Part shown: in pieces, positions 6,200 to 29,224 of the stretch | Numbering within the stretch: position 1 is the stretch's first letter | Layout of the letters: every line of letters begins with the position of its first letter | Source: a virus | Lineage: Duplodnaviria; Caudoviricetes | Direction: 5' to 3' (one strand) | Length of the DNA: 29,290 bases | Virus record (IMG/VR): IMGVR_UViG_3300044691_000225 | Span: 1 to 29,290 of that record | Program-made: the position numbers and the translations under genes | The notes under the pieces: model-generated | What the model saw: only the letters and a program-made list of their open reading frames with translations | Told to the model about the DNA's origin: nothing | Database searches by the model: none

Positions 6200-6200
6200 T

Positions 6201-10913: not shown

Positions 10914-13440
10914 CGATTGCCTCGAAGCCGTCTCGACCATGCTCGGCCGGCAACTCTCCGCCGCGCAAGGGACCAAGATCGAAGAACGCGTGCGCAACAT
11001 GATGCAGGTGCTCGCGCGGGCGAACCCGGAAGAATGGCGCGCCAAGTCCTACACCACGCGCCTGATGGACGCCGCAGCCGCAGCAGCCCAGGACATGAAA
11101 GAGGAACTGGCGGCGAAGCGCGCGAATGTCGAGAAGACGATTGCGGCTCACGATCGCATCGAGAACTTCCTCGCGACCCAACCGAGCAACAAAGTGGGCG
11201 ACGGGCTGCGAGCGGTCTCCAAGCTCGCCGACTTCGACACCCGCGGTGGTGGGTATGCATCCGTGCATTCCTGGGCCACCGCGATCCGTGAGACTGCGTT
11301 TGGCGAGTTGCGCAAAACCTGGGAGGCGATTCCCGGCAACTTCTTTGGGCTGTTCGAAGATGCTAAGGGCGTCGGTGACCTGTGGAAGGAGCTGCATGGC
11401 GAGGATTCGGGCAACAGCACGGCCAAGGCTGGGGCCGCCTCGTGGAAGAAGATCACCGAAGAGATGCGCAACCGCTTCAACGATGCGGGCGGACATGTGG
11501 GCAAGCTGGAAGACTGGAGCATGCCGCAGCATCACAGCCAGCCGCGCGTCGCCAATGCGGGGCCGGAGAAGTGGATCGGCGACATTCTGCCGAAGCTTGA
11601 CCGGAACAAGTACGTCAATGCCGATGGTTCCCGGATGTCGGGCGATCAGATGCACGACTTCCTGCTGCACGCGTATGACTCGATCGTCACCGATGGGCAC
11701 AACGGCACCGAGGCGGGGAGCGTCAGCGGCGAAGGTGTCACCGCGAACCGCAATGCCGCGCACCGGCAGATCTTCTTCAAAGACGCCGACTCGCACGCGG
11801 AATACAACGCGGCCTATGGCGAGAAGTCGATGAACAACCTGCTGTCGGGGCATATCGCGCGCCTGTCCCGAGACATCGCCCTGACCGAACGGCTAGGGCC
11901 CAATTCTGCCGCCACGTTCAAATACTTCAACGACAGGGCGATGCAGGATGAGGTGCGGCAAAACCCGACCAAGCTCAAGGCGCTGGAGGGTAAGAAGGCC
12001 TTCAACGAATCGCTCTTCGATGCCGTGTCAGGTAAAGACAAGGTCGTCAATCAGAACGTCGCCAATGCCTTCCAATCGTTTCGCAATTGGATGACGGCGA
12101 GCAAGTTGGGCAAGGTGGTCATTACCGCGCTGTCCGACGAAGCGGGCATGTTCTCAACCGCCATCGCCAACAAGGTGCCGTACTCCGAAGCGTTGCTCAA
12201 TGAATTGAAGCGCGTCCCGAATGGCAAGGCTCGCCAGTTCGCTGAGCACACCGGCCTTGGCATCGATGCCTTCATGTCGCACATGAACCGCTTCGCCCAG
12301 GAAGAATTTGGCTCGTCGTTTTCGGGAAAGATGGCTTCCTCCGTGATGCGGATGTCAGGGGCAGAGCGCATGTGGGCGGCCCGCCGGCAGGGCATGGGCG
12401 TGACGCTCATGTCCAGCATCGGCAAGTTGACGCGCAGCATCGATCACGTCGACGGACTCTCGGCCGAGGATCACGGCGTACTGGCCAAAAAGGGCATCAC
12501 GGATCAGCAGTGGCAGGTCTGGCGCCGGGCCGAGCCGGAGAATTGGGGCGGTACCTCGAACGTGCTGACCCCCAAATCCATTTGGGCTATCCCCGATGAG
12601 AAGTTAGCCGACCTGGGCAATCCCACCGCGTTGAAGCGCGATGCTTCCACGCAACTGATGGCTCACATCCACGAAGAGGCGGGCATGGGCGCGATGGACA
12701 CCGGTCCCCGGCAGAAACTCGCCCTCACGCGGGGCACCCAGCGCGGAACGGTACCCGGTGAGATCTGGCGCTCGATGATGCTGTTCAAGGGATTTGCCGC
12801 CTCCATGATGATGAAGCACTGGGCGCGTGCCGCGGATATGCCGGGCGTGAGTTCCAAAATCAAGTACATGGCGCCGCTCTTTATCTACGGCACGGCGCTG
12901 GCCGCAGTCGGTAATCAGATCAGGAACCTCATCGGTGGCGCTGATCCTGAGAACATGAACCCGAAAGAGAACCTGGCCTTCTGGGGCAAAGCGCTGCTGC
13001 GCGGCGGGGGCTTGGGGTTCTTCGGCGACTTCCTCCAGAGCGAGACGACGCAGCACGATACGTCTCTTGCGGCAGCGTTGGGCGGACCCGCGGCCACGAC
13101 GACCGAGGACCTATTGAGCCTCACCCACGGCGCGTACTGGAAATCCAAGCACGGCGATTTGGGCGTTGATGAGAAGGCCAAGATCATCCGCTTCGCCAAG
13201 GGGAATATTCCCTTGATCAGCATGTGGTATACGCAGGCCGCCGCCGATCATCTGATCTGGAATCACCTCCAGGAGATCGCGAGCCCCGGCTATCTCTCGC
13301 GCATGCAGGCGAGGCAAGAAGCGAACTTCGGCAAAACCTATTACTGGAATCCAGACTCCGCGACTCCGGGCCGTGCGCCGGATCTCGCCAAGGCGTTGGG
13401 CGGCAACTCGAATGCATCTTTTGCAGGGAATACGCAATGA
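10906..13440 (+). CDS. Large internal virion/ejection protein (gp16-like)
   Basis: Start MRSDCLEAV at ATG 10906; about 844 aa; PQHH, ALLRGGGLG.FGDF and LQE..SPGY motifs resembling epsilon15-type DNA transfer proteins. Confidence 0.75.
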   Translation: MRSDCLEAVSTMLGRQLSAAQGTKIEERVRNMMQVLARANPEEWRAKSYTTRLMDAAAAAAQDMKEELAAKRANVEKTIAAHDRIENFLATQPSNKVGDGLRAVSKLADFDTRGGGYASVHSWATAIRETAFGELRKTWEAIPGNFFGLFEDAKGVGDLWKELHGEDSGNSTAKAGAASWKKITEEMRNRFNDAGGHVGKLEDWSMPQHHSQPRVANAGPEKWIGDILPKLDRNKYVNADGSRMSGDQMHDFLLHAYDSIVTDGHNGTEAGSVSGEGVTANRNAAHRQIFFKDADSHAEYNAAYGEKSMNNLLSGHIARLSRDIALTERLGPNSAATFKYFNDRAMQDEVRQNPTKLKALEGKKAFNESLFDAVSGKDKVVNQNVANAFQSFRNWMTASKLGKVVITALSDEAGMFSTAIANKVPYSEALLNELKRVPNGKARQFAEHTGLGIDAFMSHMNRFAQEEFGSSFSGKMASSVMRMSGAERMWAARRQGMGVTLMSSIGKLTRSIDHVDGLSAEDHGVLAKKGITDQQWQVWRRAEPENWGGTSNVLTPKSIWAIPDEKLADLGNPTALKRDASTQLMAHIHEEAGMGAMDTGPRQKLALTRGTQRGTVPGEIWRSMMLFKGFAASMMMKHWARAADMPGVSSKIKYMAPLFIYGTALAAVGNQIRNLIGGADPENMNPKENLAFWGKALLRGGGLGFFGDFLQSETTQHDTSLAAALGGPAATTTEDLLSLTHGAYWKSKHGDLGVDEKAKIIRFAKGNIPLISMWYTQAAADHLIWNHLQEIASPGYLSRMQARQEANFGKTYYWNPDSATPGRAPDLAKALGGNSNASFAGNTQ

Positions 13441-15554
13441 CCATCATCACGACTCAGTCTCGAATCACCTACGCGGGGGATAACGTCTCGACGCTCTTCC
13501 CGGTGCCGTTCGAGTTCTTTCTCAATAGCGATCTCACCGTCTCGAAGACCGCAGTCAACGGCGCGGTCTCGACGCTGACGCTCAACATAGACTTCACGCT
13601 CGCCGGCGCCAACGTGCCAGGTGGCGGATCGCTCACGAAGACGACAGCGTTATTGACGGGCGAGATCATGGCAATCTACTTGAACCCGCCGATCAGTCAG
13701 CAATCGCACTACATCTCGAATTCACCGTTTCCCTCGGCGACGCTCGAAAACGACATCGACCGACAGACGCAGATCAGCCAGCGGCTACAAGACCAGATCA
13801 GCCGCTCCGTTCGCGCGCCCGATGGCGATGCCGCGCCCGGAATGCTGCTCGCGTCTGCGACCCTGCGGGCGCTCATGTACCTCGCGTTCGATGCCAATGG
13901 CAACGCGGTCACGGTACCGTCTCTTCCGGGGTCGGCCATTACGCAGCAGTCACTGGGTATCGTACTCAATCCGCAGTCGCCCGCCGAGATTGCGGTCGGT
14001 GTGACGCCGACCCTTTACTTCTACCCGGTCGGCCATCTGTTGCGCTATGGCGCGGATGCCACCGGAGCCGGATCGAGTTGGACCGCCTTCAACAACTGCG
14101 CGAAGGTGTGCCAGAAGACCGGCAACACCATGACCGTGCCGCCGGGCGACTTCCTGATCGATACCGTCAACGGTTCGATCACACTTCAATACTTGGGCCT
14201 CCTTGGTACGAGTGTGAACGACACCTACAACCAGAACAACCAGGGCTCGGTGCTCAATATCACCGGTACCGTCAACTCGCCTTTCAAACTCCAGGCCGGC
14301 GCTAAGATCGATGGGGTTGTCTTCTACTACCCGAACAACATCACCGATGGGGTCACGCCCACGGTCTACCCGCCGACTCTGTCTGTCGACATTACCAACG
14401 GCCCGGTGAACTACGTCTATATTCAGAACTGCGTTGCGGTGAATGCATATCGGTTCTTTGTCGACGCGGATGCGACCGGCGGTTTGGGGCATGTGTTCAT
14501 CACCGACAACACAATCTACGGCATCCTGAGTTGCATCGAAATTGCGTATAACGCCGAAATTTGCACCATCGAGGGGAACGAATTTACCTTCGGCGCCTTC
14601 AACGTCGCGCAGTTGGAGACCAACCCGTCCTTCCGCTTCACTAGCCGCACCACGGGCTCGGCGATGATCATCAAGCAGACGGACGGCCTCACTATCCAGG
14701 GCAACGTCTTTTTCGGCTACTTGAATGGCATCAACTGCCCGATTGTGACGGGGGGTAACGGCGGGGTCATTCAGCAAACGACGATCGGGAACAACTATTT
14801 CGATCAGACGGTATTCGGGATCAACGTCTCCGGCCCCGGCAATTGGAACATCATTCAGATCACCGGTAACTTTTTCTCCGGCTATGACAATGTGAGTGCA
14901 CAGCACAACTTGATCGGTAACTGCGTCAAGGTTGCCACCTCGGGCGCCGTGAGCCAGGAAGTGGTGACGATCACAGGGAATACGTTCGCTATCTCCACCG
15001 GGGACTCGGTCAATGTCACCGGGGCAACGCCTCAGCGGCAGTACGTGTGTTCCGGCAACACCTTCACCCAGTGGGGCATTTTCCAAACGACCGGGGGTCC
15101 GTACGCGGGCTGGAATTATTCGGGCGCGGGATCGAGCTGCATCGTCACCGGCAATTCCTTCATCGGTTGCGGCGGCTCGGTCGGCATCTGCACTGGCATC
15201 TTGGGCGCATGCAGTTCGGCGCTCATCAATAGCAATGCCTTCCTCAACTCAGGCGCCGGAGCGCTTGGCATTACTGGTGTCGTGGCCTTCACCGCGAGCA
15301 ACCTCATCGTCACGGCGAACTTTAGCGCCGGACAAAGTGGCGGGACGTGGGACGACAATCTCTCAGCCACCACACTCTACGAGATCGGCAATATCTGGGG
15401 ACGGCGCACCTTTGGAAGTCCTTTCGTGGTGCCGCTTGCCGCCTGGACTCAGGCCGCGAATGACGCGGCAGCAGCGGCAGCAAGTCCCCCCGTGCCAGTG
15501 GGGGCGCTGTACTACAACACGACGGTTACTGCGGTGAAAGTGAGGCTCACATGA
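13437..15554 (+). CDS. Tailspike/tail fiber: T7 gp17-like anchor plus right-handed beta-helix (depolymerase-like)
   Basis: ATGA-coupled start; YAGDNVSTLFPVPFEF...LENDIDRQTQISQRL anchor; YGADATG..SW.AF; repeated I.GN.F beta-helix rungs. Confidence 0.85.
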   Translation: MTIITTQSRITYAGDNVSTLFPVPFEFFLNSDLTVSKTAVNGAVSTLTLNIDFTLAGANVPGGGSLTKTTALLTGEIMAIYLNPPISQQSHYISNSPFPSATLENDIDRQTQISQRLQDQISRSVRAPDGDAAPGMLLASATLRALMYLAFDANGNAVTVPSLPGSAITQQSLGIVLNPQSPAEIAVGVTPTLYFYPVGHLLRYGADATGAGSSWTAFNNCAKVCQKTGNTMTVPPGDFLIDTVNGSITLQYLGLLGTSVNDTYNQNNQGSVLNITGTVNSPFKLQAGAKIDGVVFYYPNNITDGVTPTVYPPTLSVDITNGPVNYVYIQNCVAVNAYRFFVDADATGGLGHVFITDNTIYGILSCIEIAYNAEICTIEGNEFTFGAFNVAQLETNPSFRFTSRTTGSAMIIKQTDGLTIQGNVFFGYLNGINCPIVTGGNGGVIQQTTIGNNYFDQTVFGINVSGPGNWNIIQITGNFFSGYDNVSAQHNLIGNCVKVATSGAVSQEVVTITGNTFAISTGDSVNVTGATPQRQYVCSGNTFTQWGIFQTTGGPYAGWNYSGAGSSCIVTGNSFIGCGGSVGICTGILGACSSALINSNAFLNSGAGALGITGVVAFTASNLIVTANFSAGQSGGTWDDNLSATTLYEIGNIWGRRTFGSPFVVPLAAWTQAANDAAAAAASPPVPVGALYYNTTVTAVKVRLT

Positions 15555-16358: not shown

Positions 16359-16615
16359 GTGATGATCCGAATGGACTAGCCGGAATGGCCTCCGCCCATA
16401 GCGGATGGATCACGGCATTTTTCGCGGCAAGCTGGGGAATCGTGCTGCGCGCGCTCATCGGCCGCCATATACGCCGCGAAGAGAGGCAGCATGAGTTGGA
16501 CGAGAAAACCTTGCAGCGCCTCACCCTCATCGAACTACGGTTAGCGGTCATCGAATCTCGCTCCCATGACCGGCGCCGAGAAGATCCACATCCATGGGAT
16601 GAGGACTCGACATGA
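16355..16615 (+). CDS. Putative holin/antiholin-like single-TM protein
   Basis: One TM segment (WITAFFAASWGIVLRALI), charged C-terminus, directly upstream of the endolysin. Confidence 0.55.
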   Translation: MSDDPNGLAGMASAHSGWITAFFAASWGIVLRALIGRHIRREERQHELDEKTLQRLTLIELRLAVIESRSHDRRREDPHPWDEDST

Positions 16616-16956
16616 GCGCCATTCAACAGGAATTCGCACACGCCGCCTCGGTGCTCATCCAGAAGGCGATGGAATTTGGCTACACGATCACGCTTGGTGA
16701 AGCCTGGCGCACGCCGCAGCAAGCGCAATGGAACGCCGACCATGGGACCGGGATCGCGCACAGCCTGCATATTGAGCGCTTGGCGATTGATCTCAACTTC
16801 TTCAAGGCCGGCGCGCTCATCACCGACGGATCGAAGCTCAAAGACATCGGCGAGTGGTGGAAGTCACTCGGCCCCAATTATCGGTGGGGTGGAGATTTTA
16901 CGCATCTCCCCGACGGTAACCATTTTAGTATTTCGCCTGACGGTCACACTGCCTGA
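16612..16956 (+). CDS. Endolysin, peptidase M15 family (L-Ala-D-Glu peptidase-like)
   Basis: GEAWRT, SLH...LAIDL and WGGDF...DGNHFS zinc-binding motifs. Confidence 0.9.
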   Translation: MSAIQQEFAHAASVLIQKAMEFGYTITLGEAWRTPQQAQWNADHGTGIAHSLHIERLAIDLNFFKAGALITDGSKLKDIGEWWKSLGPNYRWGGDFTHLPDGNHFSISPDGHTA

Positions 16957-19853: not shown

Positions 19854-20336
19854 TCAGGTGCGCCGACGTTTATTGCTTGCCTGTTCTTTTCGGGTGGCCC
19901 AGCGGCAATTTCCTGGTTCGTAGTTCCCATCGTTGTTTTTGCGATCCAAACTACGACCAATAGGCCGCGCGCCCATATCCGATAGGAAATTTTCGAATAT
20001 TCTCCATCGTTCGCAAACAGTGATTCCGCGGCCTCCCCAACAGTCGAATCGAGTACATTTTGGGTTGTAGCAACGCTGAAACATAGCTTTCCATGTTCGA
20101 TATTCTGGGGACACCCTCCCCGGAAGCGCATGACCGTGGCGGGGGCCGCGATGGGTAGTAGTAATCCGTGCGCCGCCGTGCTTCGCAATGATCCGGTTAG
20201 CCGTAGGCATGGATATGCAAAATGTCGAGGCGCAAATGTTGATCGGGTTTCCAGCCTTGCGGTAACGATAGAGGCTCAACTCGTCAGCTTCATTCAAGCG
20301 CCGCGGGCGTCCAGTGCGTACTTTTGATATATCCAT
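19854..20336 (-). CDS. HNH endonuclease with N-terminal HTH
   Basis: YRTWKAMFQRC, GGRGITVCERW and SLDRKNNDGNYEPGNCRWAT..Q..N motifs; start ATG 20336. Confidence 0.88.
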   Translation of the reverse strand: MDISKVRTGRPRRLNEADELSLYRYRKAGNPINICASTFCISMPTANRIIAKHGGARITTTHRGPRHGHALPGRVSPEYRTWKAMFQRCYNPKCTRFDCWGGRGITVCERWRIFENFLSDMGARPIGRSLDRKNNDGNYEPGNCRWATRKEQASNKRRRT

Positions 20337-20353
20337 AAGTTTAATTTTAACCC

Positions 20354-20728
20354 TTAAGCCAGCTTCTCGAATACCCACTCAGGCCATGCTTCGGGTACGG
20401 GCTGCTCTTGTATCAAAATGGCCTCTTGGCGAAGACGCTTCAATTCGACCTCATAGGCGGCAATCTGCTGGCGCATGAGGGGCACGACCATCACTTGCCC
20501 GCGGGCGATCCGCCAGCCCTCGGGGGAGATCAAATCCTGACCATTCAAGCGCCATCCGCTCCACTCGGCGCTGAAGCAACCGAGGTCCGCGCGTATCAGA
20601 AGTAGGGCGCTTTCGGGCGGGCACCGTGCTCCGCGCTTCCAGCGCCGGGCGGTCGTCAAATCGACATGGCATATGCGAGCTATCTCCTTGATAGTTATGC
20701 CGTACAATGGATCATTAGGGGTTGCCAC
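20354..20728 (-). CDS. HTH + DUF3653 protein, XafT-like Xer recombination activator
   Basis: N-terminal HTH (IKEIARICHVDLTTARRWKRG) followed by WSGWRL.G..LISPEG DUF3653-type motif; adjacent to a dif-like site. Confidence 0.75.
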   Translation of the reverse strand: MATPNDPLYGITIKEIARICHVDLTTARRWKRGARCPPESALLLIRADLGCFSAEWSGWRLNGQDLISPEGWRIARGQVMVVPLMRQQIAAYEVELKRLRQEAILIQEQPVPEAWPEWVFEKLA

Positions 20729-20751
20729 ATACCCATGTTACCTATTGATTT

Positions 20752-20779
20752 ACTTCGCATAATGTATAGACTGGCAAAT
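20752..20779 (+). other. dif-like attP site (XerC arm ACTTCGCATAA, spacer TGTATA, degenerate XerD arm GACTGGCAAAT)
   Basis: Versus E. coli dif GGTGCGCATAA-TGTATA-TTATGTTAAAT: 8/11, 6/6 and 6/11 matches; intergenic and AT-rich. Confidence 0.8.
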
Positions 20780-20813
20780 TGGCGATGTGTATCATAAGTC
20801 TACGAGATGTTGT

Positions 20814-21050
20814 TCAAGTAGAGTCTCTTAGAGTTTTGATACGCTCTCGAAACTCCCGGGCAATTGGCTCGACGCGCTCATCGTATGCGCGAAACTTCGC
20901 GATGATGCGATTGGCCGTGGGCACGGACACGCGATACATAGACGCGCACGTCTTGATCGAGACGCCCGATTTTCGATAGCAATAGAGCTCCCACTCATCG
21001 GCGCGCGAGAGGCGGGGAGGGCGGCCGGTGCGAAGTTTTGATTCAGCCAC
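20814..21050 (-). CDS. Small HTH DNA-binding protein (GRP-type), possible directionality factor
   Basis: RTGRPPRL...CASMYRVSVPTANRII; paralog of the HNH N-terminus; last early gene before attP. Confidence 0.65.
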   Translation of the reverse strand: MAESKLRTGRPPRLSRADEWELYCYRKSGVSIKTCASMYRVSVPTANRIIAKFRAYDERVEPIAREFRERIKTLRDST

Positions 21051-21079
21051 CGTCCACCCCGGCATCACGTGCGGTCATT

Positions 21080-21400
21080 TCAATATTCCGTGCTGGCGAA
21101 CATGTCGGGCCGGGTGGGCTTCATCTGGTCGAGGTATTCCCGAAACGTCAACCTGGGCACCTTCGGATCGTCGTGGTCCACGATCTTGAGCCGGTCCATG
21201 TCGGCGTCGGTAAGCTCGTATGGCTCGTCGAACGCCTCCTCGTCATCCATTGGGCCGCATGTGGCCTGGAAGCTCGCCTTGGCTTCCTCAAGCGTGCGCG
21301 CGACCCACCAGTCGCAGTCATTCAGCTTGTAGACGCGCCAGGGCAGCGGCGCATCCATTGCCGGTGTTTCAGGGGTCGGTTGCCCCAATAGGTCGTTCAT
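21080..21400 (-). CDS. Hypothetical phage protein
   Basis: GGAG RBS before ATG 21400; VYKLNDCDWW...FASTEY. Confidence 0.65.
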   Translation of the reverse strand: MNDLLGQPTPETPAMDAPLPWRVYKLNDCDWWVARTLEEAKASFQATCGPMDDEEAFDEPYELTDADMDRLKIVDHDDPKVPRLTFREYLDQMKPTRPDMFASTEY

Positions 21401-21420
21401 TTCTGCTCCGGTAATCTGAC

Positions 21421-21519
21421 TCAAAAGTAGTTGAGGATGGCCAGCAAGACGCAGCGCCATCGGCTCGTGCCTTCCGCCCGATAGAAGCGATAGCTTTCCC
21501 AAAACCCTAATGGCGTCAT
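21421..21519 (-). CDS. Small hypothetical peptide (32 aa)
   Basis: ATGA-coupled MTPLGFWESYRFY...; below the ORF-track cutoff. Confidence 0.35.
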   Translation of the reverse strand: MTPLGFWESYRFYRAEGTSRWRCVLLAILNYF

Positions 21520-21785
21520 TTGGCTGTTCCTGGATTAGACGAAGATGCAGGCGGAATAACGACCTTACTGATGGCCTTGCGAGCCCTGCGCATCTCGCGT
21601 TGCTTCTCGTTCAAGCCCGCGTAGAAAGCTGCGTTTAGCGCTTCTGCAAGGCTCTCGGCATCCTCTATGTCTGAATAGCTCGTGTGATGCGCCGTGCCAT
21701 CAGGGCCGATGACAGTCCATGTCCTGTCGTGGCCGCACTTGCTGCACCCGTTCGTATCGACTTCGATGAAGTACGGTTCATTCAT
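21516..21785 (-). CDS. Hypothetical protein (CxxC)
   Basis: Overlap-coupled member of the early operon. Confidence 0.6.
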   Translation of the reverse strand: MNEPYFIEVDTNGCSKCGHDRTWTVIGPDGTAHHTSYSDIEDAESLAEALNAAFYAGLNEKQREMRRARKAISKVVIPPASSSNPGTAK

Positions 21786-22023
21786 GTTCAGCCCCGGATG
21801 TAGCCTGTGAGTCTATGAAATCAAGGATCGATTCCTTGCCGCACACGCACCGGTTTCCTGGAAATTCATCTGTAAGGTGGCAATTGTCTCCATGAGGCGT
21901 TGCGGATATATGTTCTCGGGAGCGTTGGAGCGCCCCCGAAACGGCGTCGTAGTCGCTACCGCGTACCATCTCGACCACCAAGCCTTCGCTATCGTGCAAC
22001 TCAAAGGCGTAGCGCTTAGCCAT
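21778..22023 (-). CDS. Hypothetical protein (V...DYD motif)
   Basis: AAGGAG RBS before MAKRYAF. Confidence 0.6.
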   Translation of the reverse strand: MAKRYAFELHDSEGLVVEMVRGSDYDAVSGALQRSREHISATPHGDNCHLTDEFPGNRCVCGKESILDFIDSQATSGAEHE

Positions 22024-22240
22024 GCTCTGATTCTCCTTCTGTAGACGGTGTGCCCATGTCCAGAGCATCCCTGACGGTCTCGTAGAACTTATCGCAGGCG
22101 GCACATGTACATGGGCAGACCATCGCCCATTCGAGCCGCGCGTTCTGAATTATTTCGATCCGCGCCTCGGCATCCTTGAGCAGTTCGCCGCACATTGCAG
22201 CGCCAGCTGCGGTCAGCCTGTGTTGGTCGAATACGTTCAT
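22016..22240 (-). CDS. Hypothetical protein
   Basis: GGAGG RBS, ATGA coupling. Confidence 0.55.
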   Translation of the reverse strand: MNVFDQHRLTAAGAAMCGELLKDAEARIEIIQNARLEWAMVCPCTCAACDKFYETVRDALDMGTPSTEGESEHG

Positions 22241-22479
22241 GCTCCCTCCGCTTTTGAAGTAGGCGCTGTCAAAGCGGTGCCGCAGTAGGGGCAGAACTTC
22301 ATTTCGGTGACGACGTAGCATCCACCGCCGCAGCAGCCATTGATGTTCCATGATTGGCCGTCGTTGTCAGGCTCGAACTGCGCGTTTGGCCGCATCTCTG
22401 GCGGATACAGCCACCCACCCCCGGCCATGGCCTGCATTGCGCCAGCCTGCTCGGCGAATTTGTCACAGCAAAATTTCAT
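22237..22479 (-). CDS. Hypothetical Cys-rich protein (CC...FCPYCG)
   Basis: Coupled; zinc-ribbon-like motif. Confidence 0.65.
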   Translation of the reverse strand: MKFCCDKFAEQAGAMQAMAGGGWLYPPEMRPNAQFEPDNDGQSWNINGCCGGGCYVVTEMKFCPYCGTALTAPTSKAEGA

Positions 22480-22769
22480 GACTTCCCTTCTAGAAACGAG
22501 CCCAAGCTATTCGGCAAACTCCCCCTGGGCGTAGGAGCAGGATGGCCGGTAGAGAGGCCAATCTCCGCCGTCCCTGCCTTATTACAATTTACGTCAGGCC
22601 GCAATCTCTCCCATACGCTCGCAGGCACCATCAATGGCGGCATGTAGACCGCGTTAAGTTTGTAGAGGCGTTCGTACCATGGCTTCAATTCTTCCTCGTG
22701 GCGCCGTTGAAGCATCGAAATCATGTCCAAGACTGGTTTGCTGCGTTCTTCGTACTCTTCGGGCGTCAT
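22476..22769 (-). CDS. Hypothetical protein
   Basis: MTPEEYEER..., coupled to neighbours. Confidence 0.55.
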   Translation of the reverse strand: MTPEEYEERSKPVLDMISMLQRRHEEELKPWYERLYKLNAVYMPPLMVPASVWERLRPDVNCNKAGTAEIGLSTGHPAPTPRGSLPNSLGSFLEGKS

Positions 22770-22906
22770 GTCTTTTCTCTGGAAGTAAGATTGTGAGTCT
22801 GTGGCCCCATTTCCCGCCTCGCACTGAGCCGCCATGCGAACATGTCGTCTAGGTTCAGTGTTGAGAGGCGGGCGGGAACTCTGTTCGCGCAGACGACCGC
22901 AGTCAT
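22766..22906 (-). CDS. Small hypothetical protein (46 aa)
   Basis: MTAVVCANR..., ATGA overlaps at both ends; not in the ORF track. Confidence 0.4.
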   Translation of the reverse strand: MTAVVCANRVPARLSTLNLDDMFAWRLSARREMGPQTHNLTSREKT

Positions 22907-23085
22907 CGCAGCAGCTGCACTTTGCGGCATTCGCGCCAAGCCCTCATTTCGTCGGCGTCAGCCCAATAGGTCGAATCTCGCGTATTGAGCCAAAGGACGG
23001 GGGTGCCGAGATCGCCGCTCATGGGGTGGCCCATGTCGGACAACTCGGGGTCTAGGACTTGGATCATTCGTGGTTTATTTGCCAT
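22903..23085 (-). CDS. Hypothetical protein
   Basis: GGAG RBS; overlap-coupled. Confidence 0.55.
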   Translation of the reverse strand: MANKPRMIQVLDPELSDMGHPMSGDLGTPVLWLNTRDSTYWADADEMRAWRECRKVQLLR

Positions 23086-23254
23086 CGACTTTCTCCCAAA
23101 GATATTTGCACGCCAGCTCGACCGTGCGCGGGATTACCGCGTCTCCGGCGACGTACAGGCGCATGGTGCGTTCGTTGATGCCAAGTTCGCGGGCTGCACC
23201 GCGCTGCGATATGCCAGCGCGGTCCAGAAGCTTTTGAAGCTGGTTGGCGGTCAT
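23075..23254 (-). CDS. Small XRE-type HTH regulator (59 aa)
   Basis: Hand translation MTANQLQKLLDRAGISQRGAARELGINERTMRLYVAGDAVIPRTVELAC...; below the ORF-track cutoff. Confidence 0.8.
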   Translation of the reverse strand: MTANQLQKLLDRAGISQRGAARELGINERTMRLYVAGDAVIPRTVELACKYLWEKVDGK

Positions 23255-23475
23255 GGCGTGATTCCCGTGGCACGGTTTAATGCTTCAATTTGCTGTGGCG
23301 CACACATGCGGGCGCATCGGCGACAGGTGACTTCCAAAACATCGTCAGTCAACGCATTCGATGTACGCAGCCGCATCAGCCCGCCGCCGACACATGCCGC
23401 AAATCCAGGATGGCTTGCGGGGTAGCCGGCAGGCTTACGCCGCAAATGGATTTTGTAGTCGTGATAACAGTTCAT
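23251..23475 (-). CDS. Hypothetical protein (H...C...VTCxxC zinc-finger-like)
   Basis: AGGAG RBS; first gene after the internal promoter region. Confidence 0.6.
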   Translation of the reverse strand: MNCYHDYKIHLRRKPAGYPASHPGFAACVGGGLMRLRTSNALTDDVLEVTCRRCARMCAPQQIEALNRATGITP

Positions 23476-23580
23476 GTGGTGCGTCTCCTAAGCCAGCGGT
23501 ATTGCTGGATTAAGCATAGGGTCTCATAGCCTAGGTAGGGTGTCAATACCTAACACGTAATTTAACAAATTCACTGTTTG
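23476..23580 (-). promoter_or_regulatory. Internal leftward promoter/operator region
   Basis: AT-rich gap with TTGACA, TAGG...CCTA inverted repeat, TATGCT and a CCAGC-N6-GCTGG leader hairpin; -35/-10 spacing is non-canonical. Confidence 0.4.
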
Positions 23581-23589
23581 ACACCTCCC

Positions 23590-23772
23590 TCACTCGATTC
23601 GAAGGTCAATCTTTTCGGAATGGTGCCGCGATCTCAGCACACGGATGCCGCGCGGCAGTTCCTTGAATTGGCGGTCGGCCAGATGGTCCAGCAGCTCGCG
23701 CATGGCCTCCGGGTTGTCGCGCAGGTCCTGCCAGTAGTCGTGATTGATCTCTACGATAGTTCGTATGCTCAT
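23590..23772 (-). CDS. Hypothetical phage protein
   Basis: MSIRTIVEINHD...RHHS; coupled. Confidence 0.65.
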   Translation of the reverse strand: MSIRTIVEINHDYWQDLRDNPEAMRELLDHLADRQFKELPRGIRVLRSRHHSEKIDLRIE

Positions 23773-23954
23773 GTCTCACTCGAAACAGCGCCGCGGAACA
23801 TCAGCAGGAATCCCTCGTCGATACCCTCCGCCGGCCAGAATGCGCACCGCTCGGCGAACGGGCAGAGGACCGCCATCAGCCCTGTCGTGACCGGTGCGCC
23901 GCACTTGTCGCACGTCGGACAATCGTCGGGGACCTCGATGACGATCAGGCTCAT
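23769..23954 (-). CDS. Hypothetical Cys-rich protein
   Basis: CxxC and C..C motifs; ATGA coupling. Confidence 0.55.
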   Translation of the reverse strand: MSLIVIEVPDDCPTCDKCGAPVTTGLMAVLCPFAERCAFWPAEGIDEGFLLMFRGAVSSET

Positions 23955-24271
23955 GACTCACTCGATTTGGATGGCAGCAGTGACTTGAGGAAATCCACCT
24001 CGGAAACGGCGACGTTGTGCATGAACTCTGCGTCCTCGCTGTACTCGGCATCCTCGTAGTCTTCGTATGGCGTCCCGCGGCAGCCGCTGCGCCCGGTGGC
24101 TTCCCGCACCGGGCATCCATGGCAACCTCTCGGCAACAACGGGTTACATACCGAATTGAATTTCGCGCAGAGTGGGCAAGCCTGAGCGCCAGTATCGCCC
24201 CCGTTGTTCGCAACGATCGCCTCCCATTTGGCAATTGAGCCTTGTAGCGCTACTAGCGTCTCAGCTTCCAT
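23951..24271 (-). CDS. Cys-rich hypothetical phage protein
   Basis: SIAKWE...CPLC...CHGCPV...C..TPY pattern; GGGGA RBS. Confidence 0.7.
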   Translation of the reverse strand: MEAETLVALQGSIAKWEAIVANNGGDTGAQACPLCAKFNSVCNPLLPRGCHGCPVREATGRSGCRGTPYEDYEDAEYSEDAEFMHNVAVSEVDFLKSLLPSKSSES

Positions 24272-24292
24272 GTTTCGTTCCCCGGTCAGAAG

Positions 24293-24437
24293 TGGTACGG
24301 GCGGATGGAATCGAACCACCGACCTTCGGCTTATCAAGCCGCTGCTCTGCCACTCCCCGACCGTCGTCGGTTAGCGGGCGTGATTTTGGCGAACCTAGGA
24401 CGACGCCTCCATCACAACCCTGCTGAGCTACACCCGT
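24293..24437 (-). tRNA. tRNA-Ile(GAU) with 70-nt insertion in the D-loop
   Basis: Acceptor ACGGGTG/CGCCCGT + A + CCA; D stem GCTC/GAGC; anticodon loop TTGATAA; T arm GGTGG-TTCGATT-CCATC. Confidence 0.85.
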
Positions 24438-24442
24438 ATTGA

Positions 24443-24844
24443 TCATTTAATCGTTTCCTTCAATGGGCAGTCGTCGCGATGTTTCTTGCTGTAGCTGCCG
24501 TTCGGGCAGTTACAGTTCACCGTCGTTTCCGCAGTGATGCCTAGCGCCTTGCGTGCGGCGACAAGCCAGTGGTTGTCGTAGCCGCCGAGGTTGTTGAGGC
24601 GCAGATAGTCCACGTTATCGTCATACAGGCCGCGCAGCGCCGCCTCCAACTCGCGCACGCGATCTTCGGCTGTGCCCAGTTTGACACTCAGCGTGACCGC
24701 CGCGGCTTGCGCCTCGTCCACCTTGGCGGCGAGGGCGTCCCGCTCCGCCCGCACATTGATGACTTCCTGTATCAATTGCTCCACGCTTAACGAGCCGTCT
24801 TTGTTGGCGATGCGTTCGAGGATTGGATCAACCATGGTCATCAC
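24443..24844 (-). CDS. Hypothetical coiled-coil protein
   Basis: ERDAL...LEAALR...ARKALG pattern common in phage early proteins. Confidence 0.65.
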   Translation of the reverse strand: MMTMVDPILERIANKDGSLSVEQLIQEVINVRAERDALAAKVDEAQAAAVTLSVKLGTAEDRVRELEAALRGLYDDNVDYLRLNNLGGYDNHWLVAARKALGITAETTVNCNCPNGSYSKKHRDDCPLKETIK

Positions 24845-24883
24845 CTGGTTCTTTGCAGTGCTGTCATTTCGCTCATGGCTGAT

Positions 24884-25519
24884 TCATCCTGCAAGGGCCA
24901 GCGTGAAATTGACTGGTGCAATCTGCGATGTAACAGGGTTTCCCCACTGCGCTGCCATCGCCGCGGCTATACCCGCGTAAGTACGGCTGCGCTCCTTTTT
25001 CCGTTTCGCTCCCGGACCCATCCGATGAATCCTCGAACTGATGCGGCCTGGCCGCTTGCCACCGCCAACCGTTTTGTCTGGCTGGACGCAATCGGTCGGC
25101 ACAAGCTTGGGCAATCCTTTTAACCATAAGCATGTTGTCTTCCACTCCGGGTGGCCAAATTGCCACGGCTGAATAATCTGGTCAGGCTTGCGGAACTCGG
25201 CGCTCAGCCGACCGACCGGGTTCTCAATAGCGATGCGCTGGCAATCTGCTTGAGTGATCTTGAACACAAAGTTCAGCGCGTCGGCCTGTTCCTCGATCCT
25301 ATTCGGCCACCATCGAGCGCCAGACGACGCCAGATAGGTGCAGGGCGGGTGGGCAATGATCAAATCCCACCCAAGATCAAGGATTCCCAGTACGTCGCCT
25401 AGCACGTGAACTCCTGGCGTCTCCGGTGGCTGCGTGTCGCACGAAGTAGCGTCGTGGCCGGCTGCGGTGAACGCATCCCGGACCACTCCGCTGAACTCGC
25501 AGGCAACTAAAACCTTCAA
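24884..25519 (-). CDS. Short C5 cytosine DNA methyltransferase-like protein
   Basis: VLVACEFSG (motif I variant), AHPPC (motif IV), IENP (motif VI), QPWQFGH, RSRTY.GIA.AMA.QWG. Confidence 0.8.
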   Translation of the reverse strand: MKVLVACEFSGVVRDAFTAAGHDATSCDTQPPETPGVHVLGDVLGILDLGWDLIIAHPPCTYLASSGARWWPNRIEEQADALNFVFKITQADCQRIAIENPVGRLSAEFRKPDQIIQPWQFGHPEWKTTCLWLKGLPKLVPTDCVQPDKTVGGGKRPGRISSRIHRMGPGAKRKKERSRTYAGIAAAMAAQWGNPVTSQIAPVNFTLALAG

Positions 25520-25698
25520 AACCCTGTTCCCTTCGCATCCGAAGCACGTTTTAGCGCAAGGTCATACCGAACCTGCAGGCCATCAACTAGATTCTGCAAT
25601 TCCTGGTAGTCGCTAAACGCAACCCAACTACCATAGTCGTCTTGTTGCATGGCTGGCCCACCGGTTCTGTCGGTTGTGATATCCCATCGCTTAACCAT
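25516..25698 (-). CDS. Hypothetical protein (G.WV...DY motif)
   Basis: AGGGA RBS; overlaps the methyltransferase start. Confidence 0.6.
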   Translation of the reverse strand: MVKRWDITTDRTGGPAMQQDDYGSWVAFSDYQELQNLVDGLQVRYDLALKRASDAKGTGF

Positions 25699-25727
25699 GC
25701 TCAGTTCCCTTTGCAGAAGATGTCATT

Positions 25728-25928
25728 TTAAAAGCCCTCGAAATCACGCAGTTTGCCGAACGCTTCAGGTGTCATCCAAACGTCCGCCAAGGTATATGGC
25801 TCGGTCTCGCCCTCGGTCATATCATTGACATCGCGCGGCTCGATAATCACCGACGTCCCGCCAAGCGTCATCTTCACGTAGCGCACCTTCTGGCGCTTGC
25901 TCGGCGTATCGGCGTTGGCTCTATGCAT
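25728..25928 (-). CDS. Hypothetical protein
   Basis: MHRANAD...WMTPEAFGKLRDFEGF; overlap-coupled. Confidence 0.55.
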   Translation of the reverse strand: MHRANADTPSKRQKVRYVKMTLGGTSVIIEPRDVNDMTEGETEPYTLADVWMTPEAFGKLRDFEGF

Positions 25929-26280
25929 CACAGTCTTTTCCCGAAGAAGCCAAAAGCTCGTTGACCTTCGCCAGCAAGTCCCGCTGACTGCCGTACAGCC
26001 GCGCAAATTCCTTGGACTCAGCGAACATCGACGGGCCCCAAATAGCGCGCATCTCGGTCGCCGTATAGTCGATCCTCGGCTCGCCACGATGATGCCAAGG
26101 CCCCAGCGGGATCGTCGCCTGGTTGCCGCCTGAGTGCTTGCGATAGCCCTTGTCGACCAAGTGGTGGATCTCAGGATGGCCGCACGGGAACGTGTAGCCT
26201 TTGAGCACGCAGGCAATGCAGCCGATCTGGCGCAAAGCGGCGTAACGCTTCTCATCGCGCGTGGGGCCGATGCGGATCAC
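25921..26280 (-). CDS. Ref/DUF968-like HNH-type nuclease
   Basis: GCIAC...EIHH...TIPL.PWHHRG...YGSQRDLL. Confidence 0.75.
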   Translation of the reverse strand: MIRIGPTRDEKRYAALRQIGCIACVLKGYTFPCGHPEIHHLVDKGYRKHSGGNQATIPLGPWHHRGEPRIDYTATEMRAIWGPSMFAESKEFARLYGSQRDLLAKVNELLASSGKDCDA

Positions 26281-26705
26281 GCGACCGCCAACTGTTTGAG
26301 CACTTCATCGCGCAACATGCCGGGGTTCATGCCGCCGACCATGAAGCACAGCGCCTTGATTGCGCTTTCGTAGAACGCATCAAATGCCTCTTGATCCATC
26401 GCGGCGAAGCTAATGGAGCCAACGATCTTGACCACTTCGCCTGATTCTCGAATGACGACCTCGCGCGTAATGCCGAGCTTGATCTTGAGTTCGATCAGCA
26501 AATCATCAACGGTGGGCCAATCACCCGCCGCCGACCATACGGTATGGAGCAGCGCAAAGAATTTGCGGTGATGCTTCACGTTGCGCGGCTGCGTGACCTC
26601 GCACTGGACTACTTTGCCGATCTTGATCTTGCGCAAGATATCCTTGGCCGCGTCATCCGCAGCGGCGAGGCCGGCGAGCGTGCGAATGAGATACAAGTCA
26701 GCCAC
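26277..26705 (-). CDS. DUF1367/NinB-like recombination-associated protein
   Basis: PRN.KHHRKFFALL and SISFAAMDQ..F..FY motifs. Confidence 0.75.
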   Translation of the reverse strand: MADLYLIRTLAGLAAADDAAKDILRKIKIGKVVQCEVTQPRNVKHHRKFFALLHTVWSAAGDWPTVDDLLIELKIKLGITREVVIRESGEVVKIVGSISFAAMDQEAFDAFYESAIKALCFMVGGMNPGMLRDEVLKQLAVA

Positions 26706-26877
26706 GAGCACACCGCTTGTAGGCCAGTCCTTTGCCGATGCGATAGAGCAGGCTGCGGTCCACGCCCAACTCTTGAGCCACGGTGCCCGCCGGCGGTCGG
26801 GCTATCTGCCCATACCAGGCACGGACGCGCGCGGCCTGGGCGTCATCCAGCTTGCGTGGCCAGCCGCGTTGCTTCAC
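26698..26877 (-). CDS. Small HTH protein (59 aa)
   Basis: Hand translation MKQRGWPRKLDDAQAARVRAWY...VAQELGVDRSLLYRIGKG..Y; GTGA coupling; below the track cutoff. Confidence 0.7.
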   Translation of the reverse strand: MKQRGWPRKLDDAQAARVRAWYGQIARPPAGTVAQELGVDRSLLYRIGKGLAYKRCARG

Positions 26878-27383
26878 GGTCGAATGTCCAGGCGCTCGGC
26901 CTGCTCCAAGTGACAGCCGGCGATCGTCATGCCCGATTGAATAGCCTTTTTGATGAGCGCCTTATCAGGGCGGGGGAGAGGCGGCGGGGGCGGTTCCGGC
27001 GTGACCATGAACGCCTCCGGGATCTCGAATTCGCTATCCACGATCACCGAGGGCGGATTCTTCTTGAGCGCCAACACGAATTCGGTGGCCTCAATTTTAG
27101 TGATCCCGGCGCCCTGCATGTTGACCTTCAGGTACTCGCGCACCGACTCCGCGCGCTTACGGATGCGATCAGCGCGCGCCTTCATCTGTTTGGATGCACC
27201 CTCGACCGCATCGGCCATCGCTTCTGAGTTTAGGATGAACTTGGCGACGTTCGTGGCTTTGACGGTAAGGTCGCCAGTCAGGCCTTCGAGCGTATCCCTG
27301 ATGACTTCAGGAGGAAGATCCTCGGAGGCCTCCAGCGCCTCCAAGGACCGATACTGCGCAACAATTTCGTATAGAGCGGCCAT
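26874..27383 (-). CDS. Siphovirus Gp157 family protein
   Basis: LYEI...DTLE.L...K..NVA...KNPPSV...IPEAF...DK..IK.AI..G..I.G pattern. Confidence 0.85.
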   Translation of the reverse strand: MAALYEIVAQYRSLEALEASEDLPPEVIRDTLEGLTGDLTVKATNVAKFILNSEAMADAVEGASKQMKARADRIRKRAESVREYLKVNMQGAGITKIEATEFVLALKKNPPSVIVDSEFEIPEAFMVTPEPPPPPLPRPDKALIKKAIQSGMTIAGCHLEQAERLDIRP

Positions 27384-27385
27384 GA

Positions 27386-27766
27386 CTAGAACGGGATATC
27401 GTCGTCAAAATCACCATCGGCCGCCGCCGGTACCGGTGCGCGCGGCTGGACCGGCGGCAGGTTGGGCGGGAAAGCGAACTTGATGCCGCCCACCTGTTGC
27501 GTGCCCATCATGACGGTGGGATCGTGCGACAGCTTCACCTTCTTGCCGATCCAGCCGTCCGAGTCATCGCCGTAGGCCATTTCCAATTGCTTGATCTTGG
27601 TGACGTTCAGGACGACACCCTTGGTCTTTTCCTTGAAGAACAGCACCCACCGGCTATCGCCTTTGCCTACTTCTTCCAGTGATGCATCCTTGATCGTCAG
27701 CACTTCCGGTGAAGGAAAATCATCCTTCTTGAGGAATTTGCTTTGAATCATCTGTGACGTTTTCAC
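27386..27766 (-). CDS. Single-stranded DNA-binding protein-like
   Basis: SKFLK..D, LN.TK, W.GK.V.L; acidic tail DFDDDIPF; AGGAG RBS. Confidence 0.75.
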   Translation of the reverse strand: MKTSQMIQSKFLKKDDFPSPEVLTIKDASLEEVGKGDSRWVLFFKEKTKGVVLNVTKIKQLEMAYGDDSDGWIGKKVKLSHDPTVMMGTQQVGGIKFAFPPNLPPVQPRAPVPAAADGDFDDDIPF

Positions 27767-27893
27767 GTTTCAATACTCCTTCGGTTACTAACCACTCTCG
27801 GTACTCTCGGTTGATGCGCCGGTGATATTCCCATCGTTGGCGCTCATCGAGTTCTTGCTGATGCCAGGCGGCATCTGTCAAATCGTCGTCCAT
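27720..27893 (-). CDS. Small hypothetical protein (57 aa)
   Basis: MDDDLTDAAWHQQELDERQ...; ATG abuts previous stop. Confidence 0.5.
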   Translation of the reverse strand: MDDDLTDAAWHQQELDERQRWEYHRRINREYREWLVTEGVLKRENVTDDSKQIPQEG

Positions 27894-28163
27894 TTACGCG
27901 GGCTCGCCCTGTAGCGTCAGCGCCAGCAATTCCTGCTTGCGCGTCTTCAATTCGTTCAGTTCTTGCGTGAACTTCGTGGTGATGGTCGCAATCTGCCTAT
28001 CGAGGCTTTCGACTTGCGCCGGCACGAATTCCTCGGGCGGGCGCGGGACGAATTCGACCTCGACGTAATGCGTCATGCGCACCATGTCGGTGTACTTTTC
28101 GTCAGCCTCAGGGCGGACCATCGAGAAGTCGTGAGCGATTTCCTTGAACACTGCGATTTTCAT
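27894..28163 (-). CDS. Hypothetical protein
   Basis: AGGA RBS; C-terminal coiled coil ending LLAL. Confidence 0.65.
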   Translation of the reverse strand: MKIAVFKEIAHDFSMVRPEADEKYTDMVRMTHYVEVEFVPRPPEEFVPAQVESLDRQIATITTKFTQELNELKTRKQELLALTLQGEPA

Positions 28164-28167
28164 AGGG

Positions 28168-28338
28168 TCATCCTGTGCGTTGAAAGTCGATCTGATACGC
28201 CCGCTTGAGCCGCGCCTCGCATAACCTCAAACGAGCCTCCAAGAGCGCGTTATCGCTTTTGAGTGCGGTGATCTGCTTGAGGTGGCGCTCGCGCTCGATG
28301 GACCATGTCAATAGCTGTTCCATGGTGACTTCGGTCAT
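28168..28338 (-). CDS. Hypothetical coiled-coil protein
   Basis: GAGG RBS; ATGA coupling. Confidence 0.55.
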   Translation of the reverse strand: MTEVTMEQLLTWSIERERHLKQITALKSDNALLEARLRLCEARLKRAYQIDFQRTG

Positions 28339-28526
28339 TTCGTGACACCTCGCACGTCCTTCCATACATCGCGGCCGACACGCGCATCGAACTGTTGATT
28401 GCGCCGCCTCGTGCGCTGTTGCATCAAGTGATCGTAGATATCGAAAAAGAGCGACCACACGAGCCAGGCGAGGAAGCCAGCGGCGCCTAAGCCCATCATT
28501 GTGTCGAACCAAATGGCGAAGGTCAT
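28335..28526 (-). CDS. Small single-TM membrane protein
   Basis: GGAG RBS; hydrophobic N-terminal helix, basic tail. Confidence 0.6.
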   Translation of the reverse strand: MTFAIWFDTMMGLGAAGFLAWLVWSLFFDIYDHLMQQRTRRRNQQFDARVGRDVWKDVRGVTK

Positions 28527-28527
28527 C

Positions 28528-28896
28528 TCAATCTCCGCAGCTAATTTCTAAGGGGCAGGAGCCTTTGCCAGCACACACGGCCTTTTGGCGGCACCAGGGG
28601 TAAGGTGTGGTGATAGGCAATTGCGATCCAAGTAACGTGCGCGCCGCAAATTCAGCCAACTGCATCTCGCGAAATTCGGCGGGGTCGCGCGTCCCAACGT
28701 ACTCGGTCACCGCGTAGCCGAGTTTGCGCAGCGCCGCCTCCAGCGCAGCAATGCGCTTGTCCTTCGCATCAAGATTGGCGGCGGCCTTCAGCCCAAGCTC
28801 GCCAAACTTCAAAGCGAGGGCGTCGTAGTCGGTCGCGCGAACACACGAGACGTTCGATTCACCATTGAACAGAAGCACATCGATGCGCTTCACCAT
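28528..28896 (-). CDS. Hypothetical protein (V...DYD motif, coiled coil, Cys-rich tail)
   Basis: GGAGG RBS before MVKRID. Confidence 0.6.
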   Translation of the reverse strand: MVKRIDVLLFNGESNVSCVRATDYDALALKFGELGLKAAANLDAKDKRIAALEAALRKLGYAVTEYVGTRDPAEFREMQLAEFAARTLLGSQLPITTPYPWCRQKAVCAGKGSCPLEISCGD

Positions 28897-29123
28897 CACA
28901 GCGCCCTCCGCTCTAGCCGCGCCATCGCTTGCTGCATCATGGGATCGTCTGTGCTTCCGCAATTTCGGCAGAAATGCGTGCGCGGGTCGTAGCTGTGAGA
29001 ATTTACTAGGCACACGACGGGCAGTTGCCACAGGGCATCCCTCGATTCGTCGGCCAAAAACTCGTCGATGGTCAATTGGTCCAACGAATTGAAATCGTCA
29101 TCGCTGATTTCGTCGTGGTTCAT
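28896..29123 (-). CDS. Hypothetical protein (C..H..CxxC)
   Basis: ATGA coupling to the upstream small ORF. Confidence 0.5.
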   Translation of the reverse strand: MNHDEISDDDFNSLDQLTIDEFLADESRDALWQLPVVCLVNSHSYDPRTHFCRNCGSTDDPMMQQAMARLERRAL

Positions 29124-29224
29124 CGCAGCCACACGCTCAGCACAGCCACGCAGATCCACGCAACGGCGCAGTACAGGGCGGGCTGCTCAAGGGGGAGGTG
29201 GGCGGTGAGACGGCAGACTTGCAT
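29120..29224 (-). CDS. Small hydrophobic peptide (34 aa), first gene of the early operon
   Basis: MQVCRLTAHLPLEQPALYCAVAWICVAVLSVWLR; GGAG RBS. Confidence 0.45.
   Translation of the reverse strand: MQVCRLTAHLPLEQPALYCAVAWICVAVLSVWLR

Follow-up and report, generated by a model that had tools for sequence, protein, structure and literature searches.

Several described elements integrate at dif by means of the XerC and XerD recombinases of their hosts (IMEXs). In TLC-phi of Vibrio cholerae, a small rolling-circle satellite, the attP site has a good XerC arm, a dif-like overlap, and a divergent XerD arm in which G5 is kept, and it is adjoined by the gene for XafT (VC1465), where an XRE-type HTH is fused to DUF3653, according to the available passages of PMC6744903. 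The base G5 is described in available passages of PMC9226527 as the most important one for XafT-driven recombination, T1 or G5 being kept in TLC-type sites, and also as a general XerD contact. In VGJ-phi, an inovirus, the activator gene (orf136, encoding XafV) lies directly beside attP, the overlap forbids the second strand exchange, and XafV acts only on XerC-initiated reactions (10.64898/2026.06.12.731946, available part). The Xanthomonas inoviruses Xf109, phiLf, and Cf1c have a DUF3653 gene by attP as well; their HTH and DUF3653 are separate genes, and the DUF3653 protein PSB15 is, in the accessible part of that literature, a binder of the packaging signal that serves packaging and is not needed for integration.

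Larger elements are also found at dif. The gonococcal genetic island (GGI) and EludIMEX-1 (57 and 29 kb, respectively) are not phages; the XerD arm of the GGI is divergent and withstands FtsK-driven excision, and the accessible text of PMC6744903 gives the island no XafT-like gene. Among double-stranded DNA phages, IMEXs are already known as tailless double jelly-roll phages (PMC12715192, in the passages available). The Vibrio dif-type prophages of this kind (NO16-like, P15/P16 module) have a dif-like attP and a XafT-like terminal gene, and their int-type and dif-type lysogeny modules are interchangeable, whereas the specificity of tailed prophages is credited to phage-encoded integrases in the same passages. 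Further sources, available in part, are 10.1101/2024.03.19.585677, 10.1101/633727, 10.1101/2023.12.30.573655, PMC9966536, PMC5357621, PMC8190038, and PMC11630473.

The locus presented here lies in a linear contig of 29.3 kb from a soil tailed phage (hereafter the window, i.e., the whole stretch of DNA that was analysed, which is the whole record), estimated to be 75% complete. Its components are as follows.

20752..20762, + strand: XerC arm, identical at 11/11 positions to the host-type dif in locus L047; the same arm is found in the dif of genome G721.
20763..20768, + strand: spacer (6-bp overlap), identical at 6/6 positions to L047 and equal to the commonest host dif spacer.
20769..20779, + strand: degenerate XerD arm, 6/11 positions as in the host arm, inner TTA absent, G5 at 20773.
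20354..20728, − strand: 124-aa protein with an XRE-like HTH and DUF3653, a predicted Xer activation factor (Pfam, NCBIfam, profile, and model).
20814..21068, − strand: 84-aa stand-alone invertase-type HTH protein with weak HTH matches, ending 34 bp before the XerD arm.

The locus shares with TLC-phi the good XerC arm, the dif-like overlap, the divergent XerD arm with G5, and the adjoining gene for a fused XRE-type HTH and DUF3653. It differs from TLC-phi in that the cassette lies in tailed phages, that the protein scores under the cut-off of the XafT family, and that an extra invertase-type HTH gene stands beside the XerD arm. Unlike in VGJ-phi, the overlap is that of dif. We regard integration of this phage at dif as very likely. 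That it proceeds by a TLC-type IMEX cassette, the 124-aa protein serving as an FtsK-independent activator of the host XerC and XerD, is in our judgment probable.

The 28-bp site has the layout 11 + 6 + 11 and reads ACTTCGCATAA TGTATA GACTGGCAAAT. The host-type site in L047, used as reference dif, may not be that of the host of the phage in the window. The exact 17-mer of XerC arm and spacer was matched in 0/300 shuffles, and the whole site is single-copy in the window, where 100 shuffles give an expectation of 0 matches. By itself the 13-bp core is weak evidence, since 21/100 shuffles contain a match at up to two mismatches. The first 20 bases of the site equal the stretch spanning the annotated attP of the Xanthomonas inovirus Xf109 (blastn E value of 0.6 because the match is short); the first 19 to 20 bases are likewise those of phiLf and Cf1c. 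Nucleotide matches were found in 12 records, of which 10 are Xanthomonas or Stenotrophomonas phage records aligned at the site. In 151 bacterial genomes of one order of Pseudomonadota, TGTATA was the commonest spacer among dif matches (81 genomes), and the pattern for this type of site was single-copy in 80 of the 81 positive genomes, as expected of dif.

These observations agree with the preliminary description, in which the site had been given a good XerC arm, a dif-identical spacer, and a XerD arm lacking its inner TTA, all 23 bp from the start of an HTH + DUF3653 gene; measured to the GTG codon of the gene, the distance is indeed 23 bp. The site had further been taken as the excised attP form. 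Since phage genes lie on both flanks, and since one public-run contig crosses the site unbroken with no differing letters, the site in the window is in the unintegrated form.

Chance likeness to dif in a mere promoter or operator of the HTH gene should be considered here, since the distance of 23 bp to the start codon is fixed in 37 of the 61 loci with a core described below and the gene has an HTH. We find this explanation scarcely credible. The 17 bases of XerC arm and spacer are all identical to a site that is single-copy in 80 of the 81 bacterial genomes containing it, the annotated attP is matched, recombinant junctions occur at the site, and the site is inverted in one class of relatives, as described later. 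Moreover, a sigma-70 scan gave two matches where 0.9 were expected; the two lie on the opposite strand, and none was found on the strand of the activator-like gene.

We compared the site across homologues of the 124-aa gene in 103 loci: 19 from IMG/VR (of 74 candidate stretches), 4 from the genome collection (of 53), and the best 80 of 109 from metagenomes (of 582). Sufficient upstream DNA is present in 101 of the loci, 77 of which are distinct. The 13-bp core, at up to two mismatches, lies upstream of the gene in 61/77 distinct loci, as against 27/15,400 shuffles, with the best 80 of 109 metagenome loci included. The 16 loci without the core comprise seven of a xerC-carrying clade, four of a mirror class, two with an intact XerC arm and another spacer, one outside the search range, one with its own integrase, and one unexplained. 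L076 and L112 have an intact XerC arm and spacers that differ from the common one; they may be directed at hosts whose dif has a different overlap.

After three small elements and three integrated loci are set aside, 55 distinct free-form sites are left. Five XerC-arm positions are invariant in all 55, in part through the core-based selection. The inner TTA of the XerD arm is present in 0/55. Contrarily, G5 is retained in 48/55 sites as against a flank frequency of 0.19, and G5 or T1 in 49/55, where XerD-arm position 5 played no part in picking the sites. On a 59-row protein tree this position (D5) undergoes 6 changes, whereas the other ten positions of the XerD arm undergo 12–23 and twelve flank positions 14–23, so that the retention of G5 goes beyond shared ancestry. 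The pattern, with a XerC arm and overlap matching the host-type dif in L047 and a degenerate XerD arm keeping G5, supports the assignment of the site as a putative TLC-type attP. Since G5 is a general XerD contact, its retention supports the use of XerD more than it proves an activator.

The 84-aa protein is also conserved. Its matches to DNA-invertase HTH are weak (phrog_125, E value of 0.004; PDB, E value of 0.33; HTH_7 of the Atlas, 0.89), and a homologue lies within 700 bp upstream in 73/91 loci with enough flank, duplicates being counted and the metagenome loci being the best 80 of 109. This conservation ahead of the site makes the cassette one of three parts. The homologue is absent from the integrated junctions L086 and L087.

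The carrier should be noted, since the cassettes known from the systems above are in tailless phages, satellites, and islands. The other genes of the window are given below.

2599..15554, + strand: short-tail (podovirus-type) tail and internal virion block (phrog_394, 376, 308, 418, 992, 1145, 684, 1640).
16612..16956, + strand: M15-type endolysin (PF13539 above cut-off; endolysin PHROGs).
19854..20378, − strand: HNH endonuclease with an N-terminal HTH copy, overlapping the end of the activator-like gene (phrog_374, E value of 2.4e-37).
21080..29159, − strand: leftward early region running toward the cassette, with recombination genes and a methyltransferase (PF16786, PF07105, PF05565, phrog_757).

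The block 2599..15554 shows that the phage is tailed. It is syntenic with phage record G004 at 34–79% identity. Terminase, portal, repressor, and replication genes were not detected in the window, which is 75% complete; G004 has terminase and capsid genes as well as head-tail genes, and the head genes of the phage in the window lie beyond the contig. The short-tail assignment is thus made from the window's own genes for tail and internal virion proteins and, for the head, by way of G004. The labels epsilon15-like and P22-like are putative for the phages considered here. Among G001–G005, the tail block of the window occurs only in G004, while the other four have different portal, head-closure, and DNA-ejection families; the cassette therefore occurs with different head-tail modules. 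Near-complete tailed phage records bearing the cassette are 39–70 kb in length.

Some genes outside the cassette are of separate interest. The 533-aa product of 996-2597, which precedes the tail genes, has a GDSL esterase domain. The tail protein encoded by 2599-3204 has an Acb2/Tad1 hairpin match under the cut-off (E value of 0.004), probably by chance. Residues 421–458 of the product of 9195-10913 match an ART-PolyVal ADP-ribosyltransferase above the Pfam cut-off; the product is probably an internal virion protein, and may be delivered with the DNA. The N terminus of the HNH endonuclease is 64% identical to the 84-aa HTH protein over 50 aa. A public-run contig omits 19841-20358, and the HNH gene is likely a mobile insertion. 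No RNA run containing the window was found among the public runs listed.

Integrated forms were found in relatives. L047 reads ACTTCGCATAA TGTATA TTATGTTAAAT, a perfect dif, 23 bp before a gene 68% identical to that of the window; the contig continues just 67 bp past the site and has no phage hallmark gene. In L086 and L087, which are identical over their overlap, a near-canonical XerD arm is followed by genes for a serine hydrolase, an ECF sigma factor, FecR, and a TonB receptor. Their blastn similarity to contig G007:C31, a circular tailed phage of 57,124 bp with terminase and capsid genes and the same tail families as the window, begins at the site and covers the phage side only, endolysin included. 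With host genes beyond a restored XerD arm, L086/L087 is the right junction predicted by the model. Two distinct integrated junctions were thus found among the 77 loci (best 80 of 109 metagenome loci included), one of them with host genes beyond. That the ends of related prophages should map to dif, as the preliminary description anticipated, is borne out for the right ends in L047 and L086/L087; a left junction of a tailed member was not found in this set.

Searches for further junctions gave the following. No integrated form of the phage of the window was seen in the public-run contigs, and no canonical XerD arm occurred among the loose ends listed for the contigs of six public runs. Contig breaks near the site in run X6 are compatible with strain variation or a junction. 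The combined pattern of restored dif and gene was found in 0 stretches of IMG/VR; of 120 IMG/VR loci whose dif is canonical, a distant homologue is present in 11, in contigs shorter than 12 kb where the length is listed, and none of the 11 has the 84-aa HTH. The family alignment had one match in 401 genomes of one order of Pseudomonadota, in a 6.5-kb inovirus-type element at dif, which rules out this sole match as a tailed prophage. This element (G721:C1 2425913-2432461; L249, L254, L255) extends from a site with a degenerate XerD arm keeping G5 to a canonical dif, and includes, some 100 bp away from dif, a distant activator-like gene. A host search with two host-side proteins gave best identities of 35–36% and 58–66% in 401 and 301 genomes, respectively. 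The metagenome-assembled genome labels Acidobacteriota and Stellaceae were rejected as hosts: the 57,124-bp contig is in two different bins, and G007 has no exact core match.

The polarity of KOPS (GGGNAGGG) is a further line of evidence, the motifs being expected to face the restored dif in a prophage that occupies its XerC side. In 17 records, 70 motifs point toward it and 20 away, 14 of the 17 having this direction. KOPS ranks first of 90 patterns of the same composition, the pooled A-containing controls being at 57% (p value of 3.5e-5). The contrary cases are the window itself (two toward and four away), G006 (one and two), and G001 (even). The test was devised after the counts had been seen and the genomes are related, so that it is supporting only.

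The junctions and the polarity bear on whether the site instead serves multimer resolution, like cer or psi, in a plasmid-like prophage that does not integrate, the 84-aa HTH being an accessory protein. In line with this, 59 of the 61 distinct core loci lack a restored XerD arm, and a conserved DNA-binding gene adjoins the XerD arm. However, restored-dif junctions with host genes exist, ParA was found in 0/17 records (G001 has a ParB-like PHROG match), and KOPS point toward the site. We consider a resolution site highly improbable.

The content of recombinase genes should also be noted. Searches of the 75%-complete contig with PF00589, PF07508, PF13614, and a custom tyrosine-recombinase profile detected neither a tyrosine nor a large serine recombinase nor ParA, the early region 21080..29159 containing no integrase by PF00589 or the custom profile. 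The statement that there is no recombinase gene at the junction thus holds, and extends to the rest of the contig. The contig being 75% complete, the absence of an integrase must be judged on relatives. PF00589 was found in 1/16 related phage records (1/12 of those at least 90% complete), in agreement with the custom profile over the 16 relatives and the window, and PF00239 in 1/16; PF07508 and PF13614 were found in 0/17 records. G009 and G011, complete by their end repeats, have none of the three recombinase families. The exception in PF00589 should be described: G004, the closest structural relative, encodes a tyrosine recombinase of 280 aa (L006:1462-2304), at a distance of about 6.4 kb from the site, within the recombination cluster and with catalytic motifs that appear intact by eye. 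Small serine recombinases lie far from the site in two complete phages, G006 (253 aa, L119:262-1023) and G007:C31 (221 aa, L265:188-853). Just upstream of the site in G007:C31 (L036 506-4790) are nucleotide-sugar biosynthesis genes (RmlD-like, epimerases) and a SNF2 helicase gene.

An integrase of its own might thus be encoded in the missing quarter of the genome, in which case the dif-like site would be secondary or a relic. The incompleteness of the contig, the recombinase in G004, and L075, which has a 386-aa integrase and no site, point in this direction. However, the gene in G004 sits in the stretch that separates the site from the recombination genes, and this stretch is present in the window with no gene of the kind; 15 of the 16 related records have no PF00589 match, and the site is under base-specific constraint. 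This explanation is in our view very unlikely. The earlier characterization of the phage as integrase-less is weakened by the incompleteness of the contig and by G004; the proposed search for integrase and ParA genes gave neither in the window and no ParA in 17 records, the tyrosine recombinase in G004 and the serine recombinases in G006 and G007:C31 being its contrary results. Taken with the restored-dif junctions, the G5 pattern, the absence of ParA, and KOPS, the scarcity of integrases supports lysogeny at dif through the host XerCD.

The 124-aa protein passes the cut-off of Pfam DUF3653 (25.6 bits, E value of 1.4e-5; cut-off, 22.4), which confirms the family suggested earlier. It lies slightly under that of HTH_3 (20.5 bits; cut-off, 23), the XRE-type HTH fused to DUF3653 being the layout of the XafT family. 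With NF040522 of NCBIfam (XafT/VC1465), it aligns over profile positions 7–105 of 111 at 46.7 bits (E value of 2.8e-12), short of the curated cut-off of 70 bits. The profile match to VGJ orf136 (XafV) has a probability of 94.7, whereas that to the Xanthomonas PSB15-type protein is 1.9. Among 50,697 phage records, protein matches were found only in 12 Vibrio phage records of 6.8–8.6 kb, at 29–33% identity, including VGJ orf136 (31% over 71 query residues). Homologues form 285 clusters at 50% identity with E values up to 1e-10. In the predicted structure (mean pLDDT, 82.8), helices at the N terminus are followed by beta hairpins and one long helix; the family alignment had no match among solved structures under an E value of 0.14, and the viral fold search gave a single match under 0.001, an uncharacterised Caudovirales protein. 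The family profile gave no XafT match in pTLC (NC_004982). A 1023-aa protein, P0187, has 15 stretches matching the family profile, the best at positions 57–95, and is possibly a DUF3653 repeat protein.

The kinship by HTH and DUF3653 suggests that the protein is likely an FtsK-independent Xer activator, as XafT is for TLC. The description as XafT-like holds in this kinship; the relation is distant (46.7 versus 70 bits), and the nearest matches in isolated phages, at about 30% identity, include XafV. Doubt over the role arises because XafV assists no reactions but those initiated by XerC, and because PSB15 functions in packaging. The phage may therefore integrate at dif through XerCD with a 124-aa protein that is not a XerD activator, being either XafV-like and acting XerC-first or a PSB15-like regulator or DNA-binder, with integration by basal XerC activity or by FtsK as for the gonococcal island. 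Taken jointly, these variants are unlikely, and several observations fit them: the NF040522 score, the Vibrio inovirus proteins as the GenBank phage matches, the precedent of PSB15, and one clade in which the gene is accompanied by a xerC-like gene of the clade's own. Against them, an overlap identical to dif together with a kept G5 is the TLC pattern, HTH and DUF3653 are fused as in XafT and not separate as in the Xanthomonas inoviruses, the PSB15-type profile probability is low, and a tailed phage would have no filamentous packaging hairpin.

If the 124-aa protein acts as a XafT-type activator, the following steps may be proposed. The genome would circularise after entry, and XerC would bind the intact arm while XerD binds weakly via G5. 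The activator would replace FtsK and trigger a full crossover within the 6 bp of overlap in which both sites are identical. The left end of the prophage would be a poor hybrid site consisting of the host XerC arm and the phage XerD arm beside the 84-aa HTH gene, and the right end a restored dif that lies 23 bp from the activator gene and consists of the phage XerC arm and the host XerD arm. With its poor XerD arm, the left end would shield the prophage from FtsK-driven excision, and KOPS toward the restored dif would allow dimer resolution to continue. Upon integration the activator gene would also be cut off from the early genes upstream of it, speculatively as an off-switch. The same severing from upstream phage transcription weighs against the mechanism, since expression for excision is left unexplained.

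Two variant forms of the locus were found. In the mirror class, consisting of four distinct loci (L022/L063 in G010, L038/L110, L072, and L077), the site, some 45 bp upstream of the match to the gene, is inverted: the inner XerD arm is 5/5 beside the gene, and the inner XerC arm is 1–3/5. The upstream HTH gene is still present, and the class occupies two places on the protein tree. G010 is a 99%-complete tailed phage with no PF00589 match. The available literature passages on IMEXs contain no counterpart of a mirror-type IMEX. In the xerC clade (L100–L103, L109, L114, L115, and L117, seven distinct loci; FastTree support of 97 on few columns), a XerC-like gene stands immediately before the activator-like gene. 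The five full-length XerC-like genes score 326–342 bits with TIGR02224 (cut-off, 335), and terminase or ejection genes are near L103 and L114. No att or dif-like site was found near the genes of this clade. L103 is part of a contig of 118 kb in which dut, pyrE, and an MFS gene are located 6–10 kb downstream, which suggests an insertion away from dif.

From these forms we tentatively propose, at a little less than even confidence, that soil tailed phages share a portable cassette of invertase-type HTH, dif-like attP, and Xaf that has moved between unrelated head-tail modules. It would occur with a degenerate XerD arm, in mirror form, or with its own xerC-like gene, Xaf licensing Xer recombination on either half-site, and tailed phages would form a large class of IMEXs so far overlooked, being rated lytic by integrase-based tools.

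The preliminary description presented a double-stranded DNA podovirus as an IMEX, beside the better-known filamentous phages, satellites, and islands. Since double-stranded DNA IMEX phages have already been described (PMC12715192), the new element is the tailed carrier of the cassette. No tailed phage integrating as an IMEX was met in the literature found, which lies mostly outside subscription journals and stops short of the homologue lists of 10.64898/2026.06.12.731946 and the 2019 online tree, either of which may hold tailed phages; the terms "Podo," "Sipho," and "Caudo" are absent from the available part of the PMC6744903 supplement.

The route by host Xer recombinases with no integrase of the element's own has so far been described for tailless phages, satellites, and islands. 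If the proposed reading is true, IMEXs extend to Caudoviricetes. The available part of 10.64898/2026.06.12.731946 leaves open the way in which XafT-like and XafV-like proteins activate XerC or XerD, and the 55 attP variants, the mirror class, and the many Xaf homologues form a natural series that could serve to address it. Lifestyle predictors rate integrase-less tailed phages as lytic or plasmid-like; the cassette would make many soil phages temperate, and it points to dif as the place to find such prophages.
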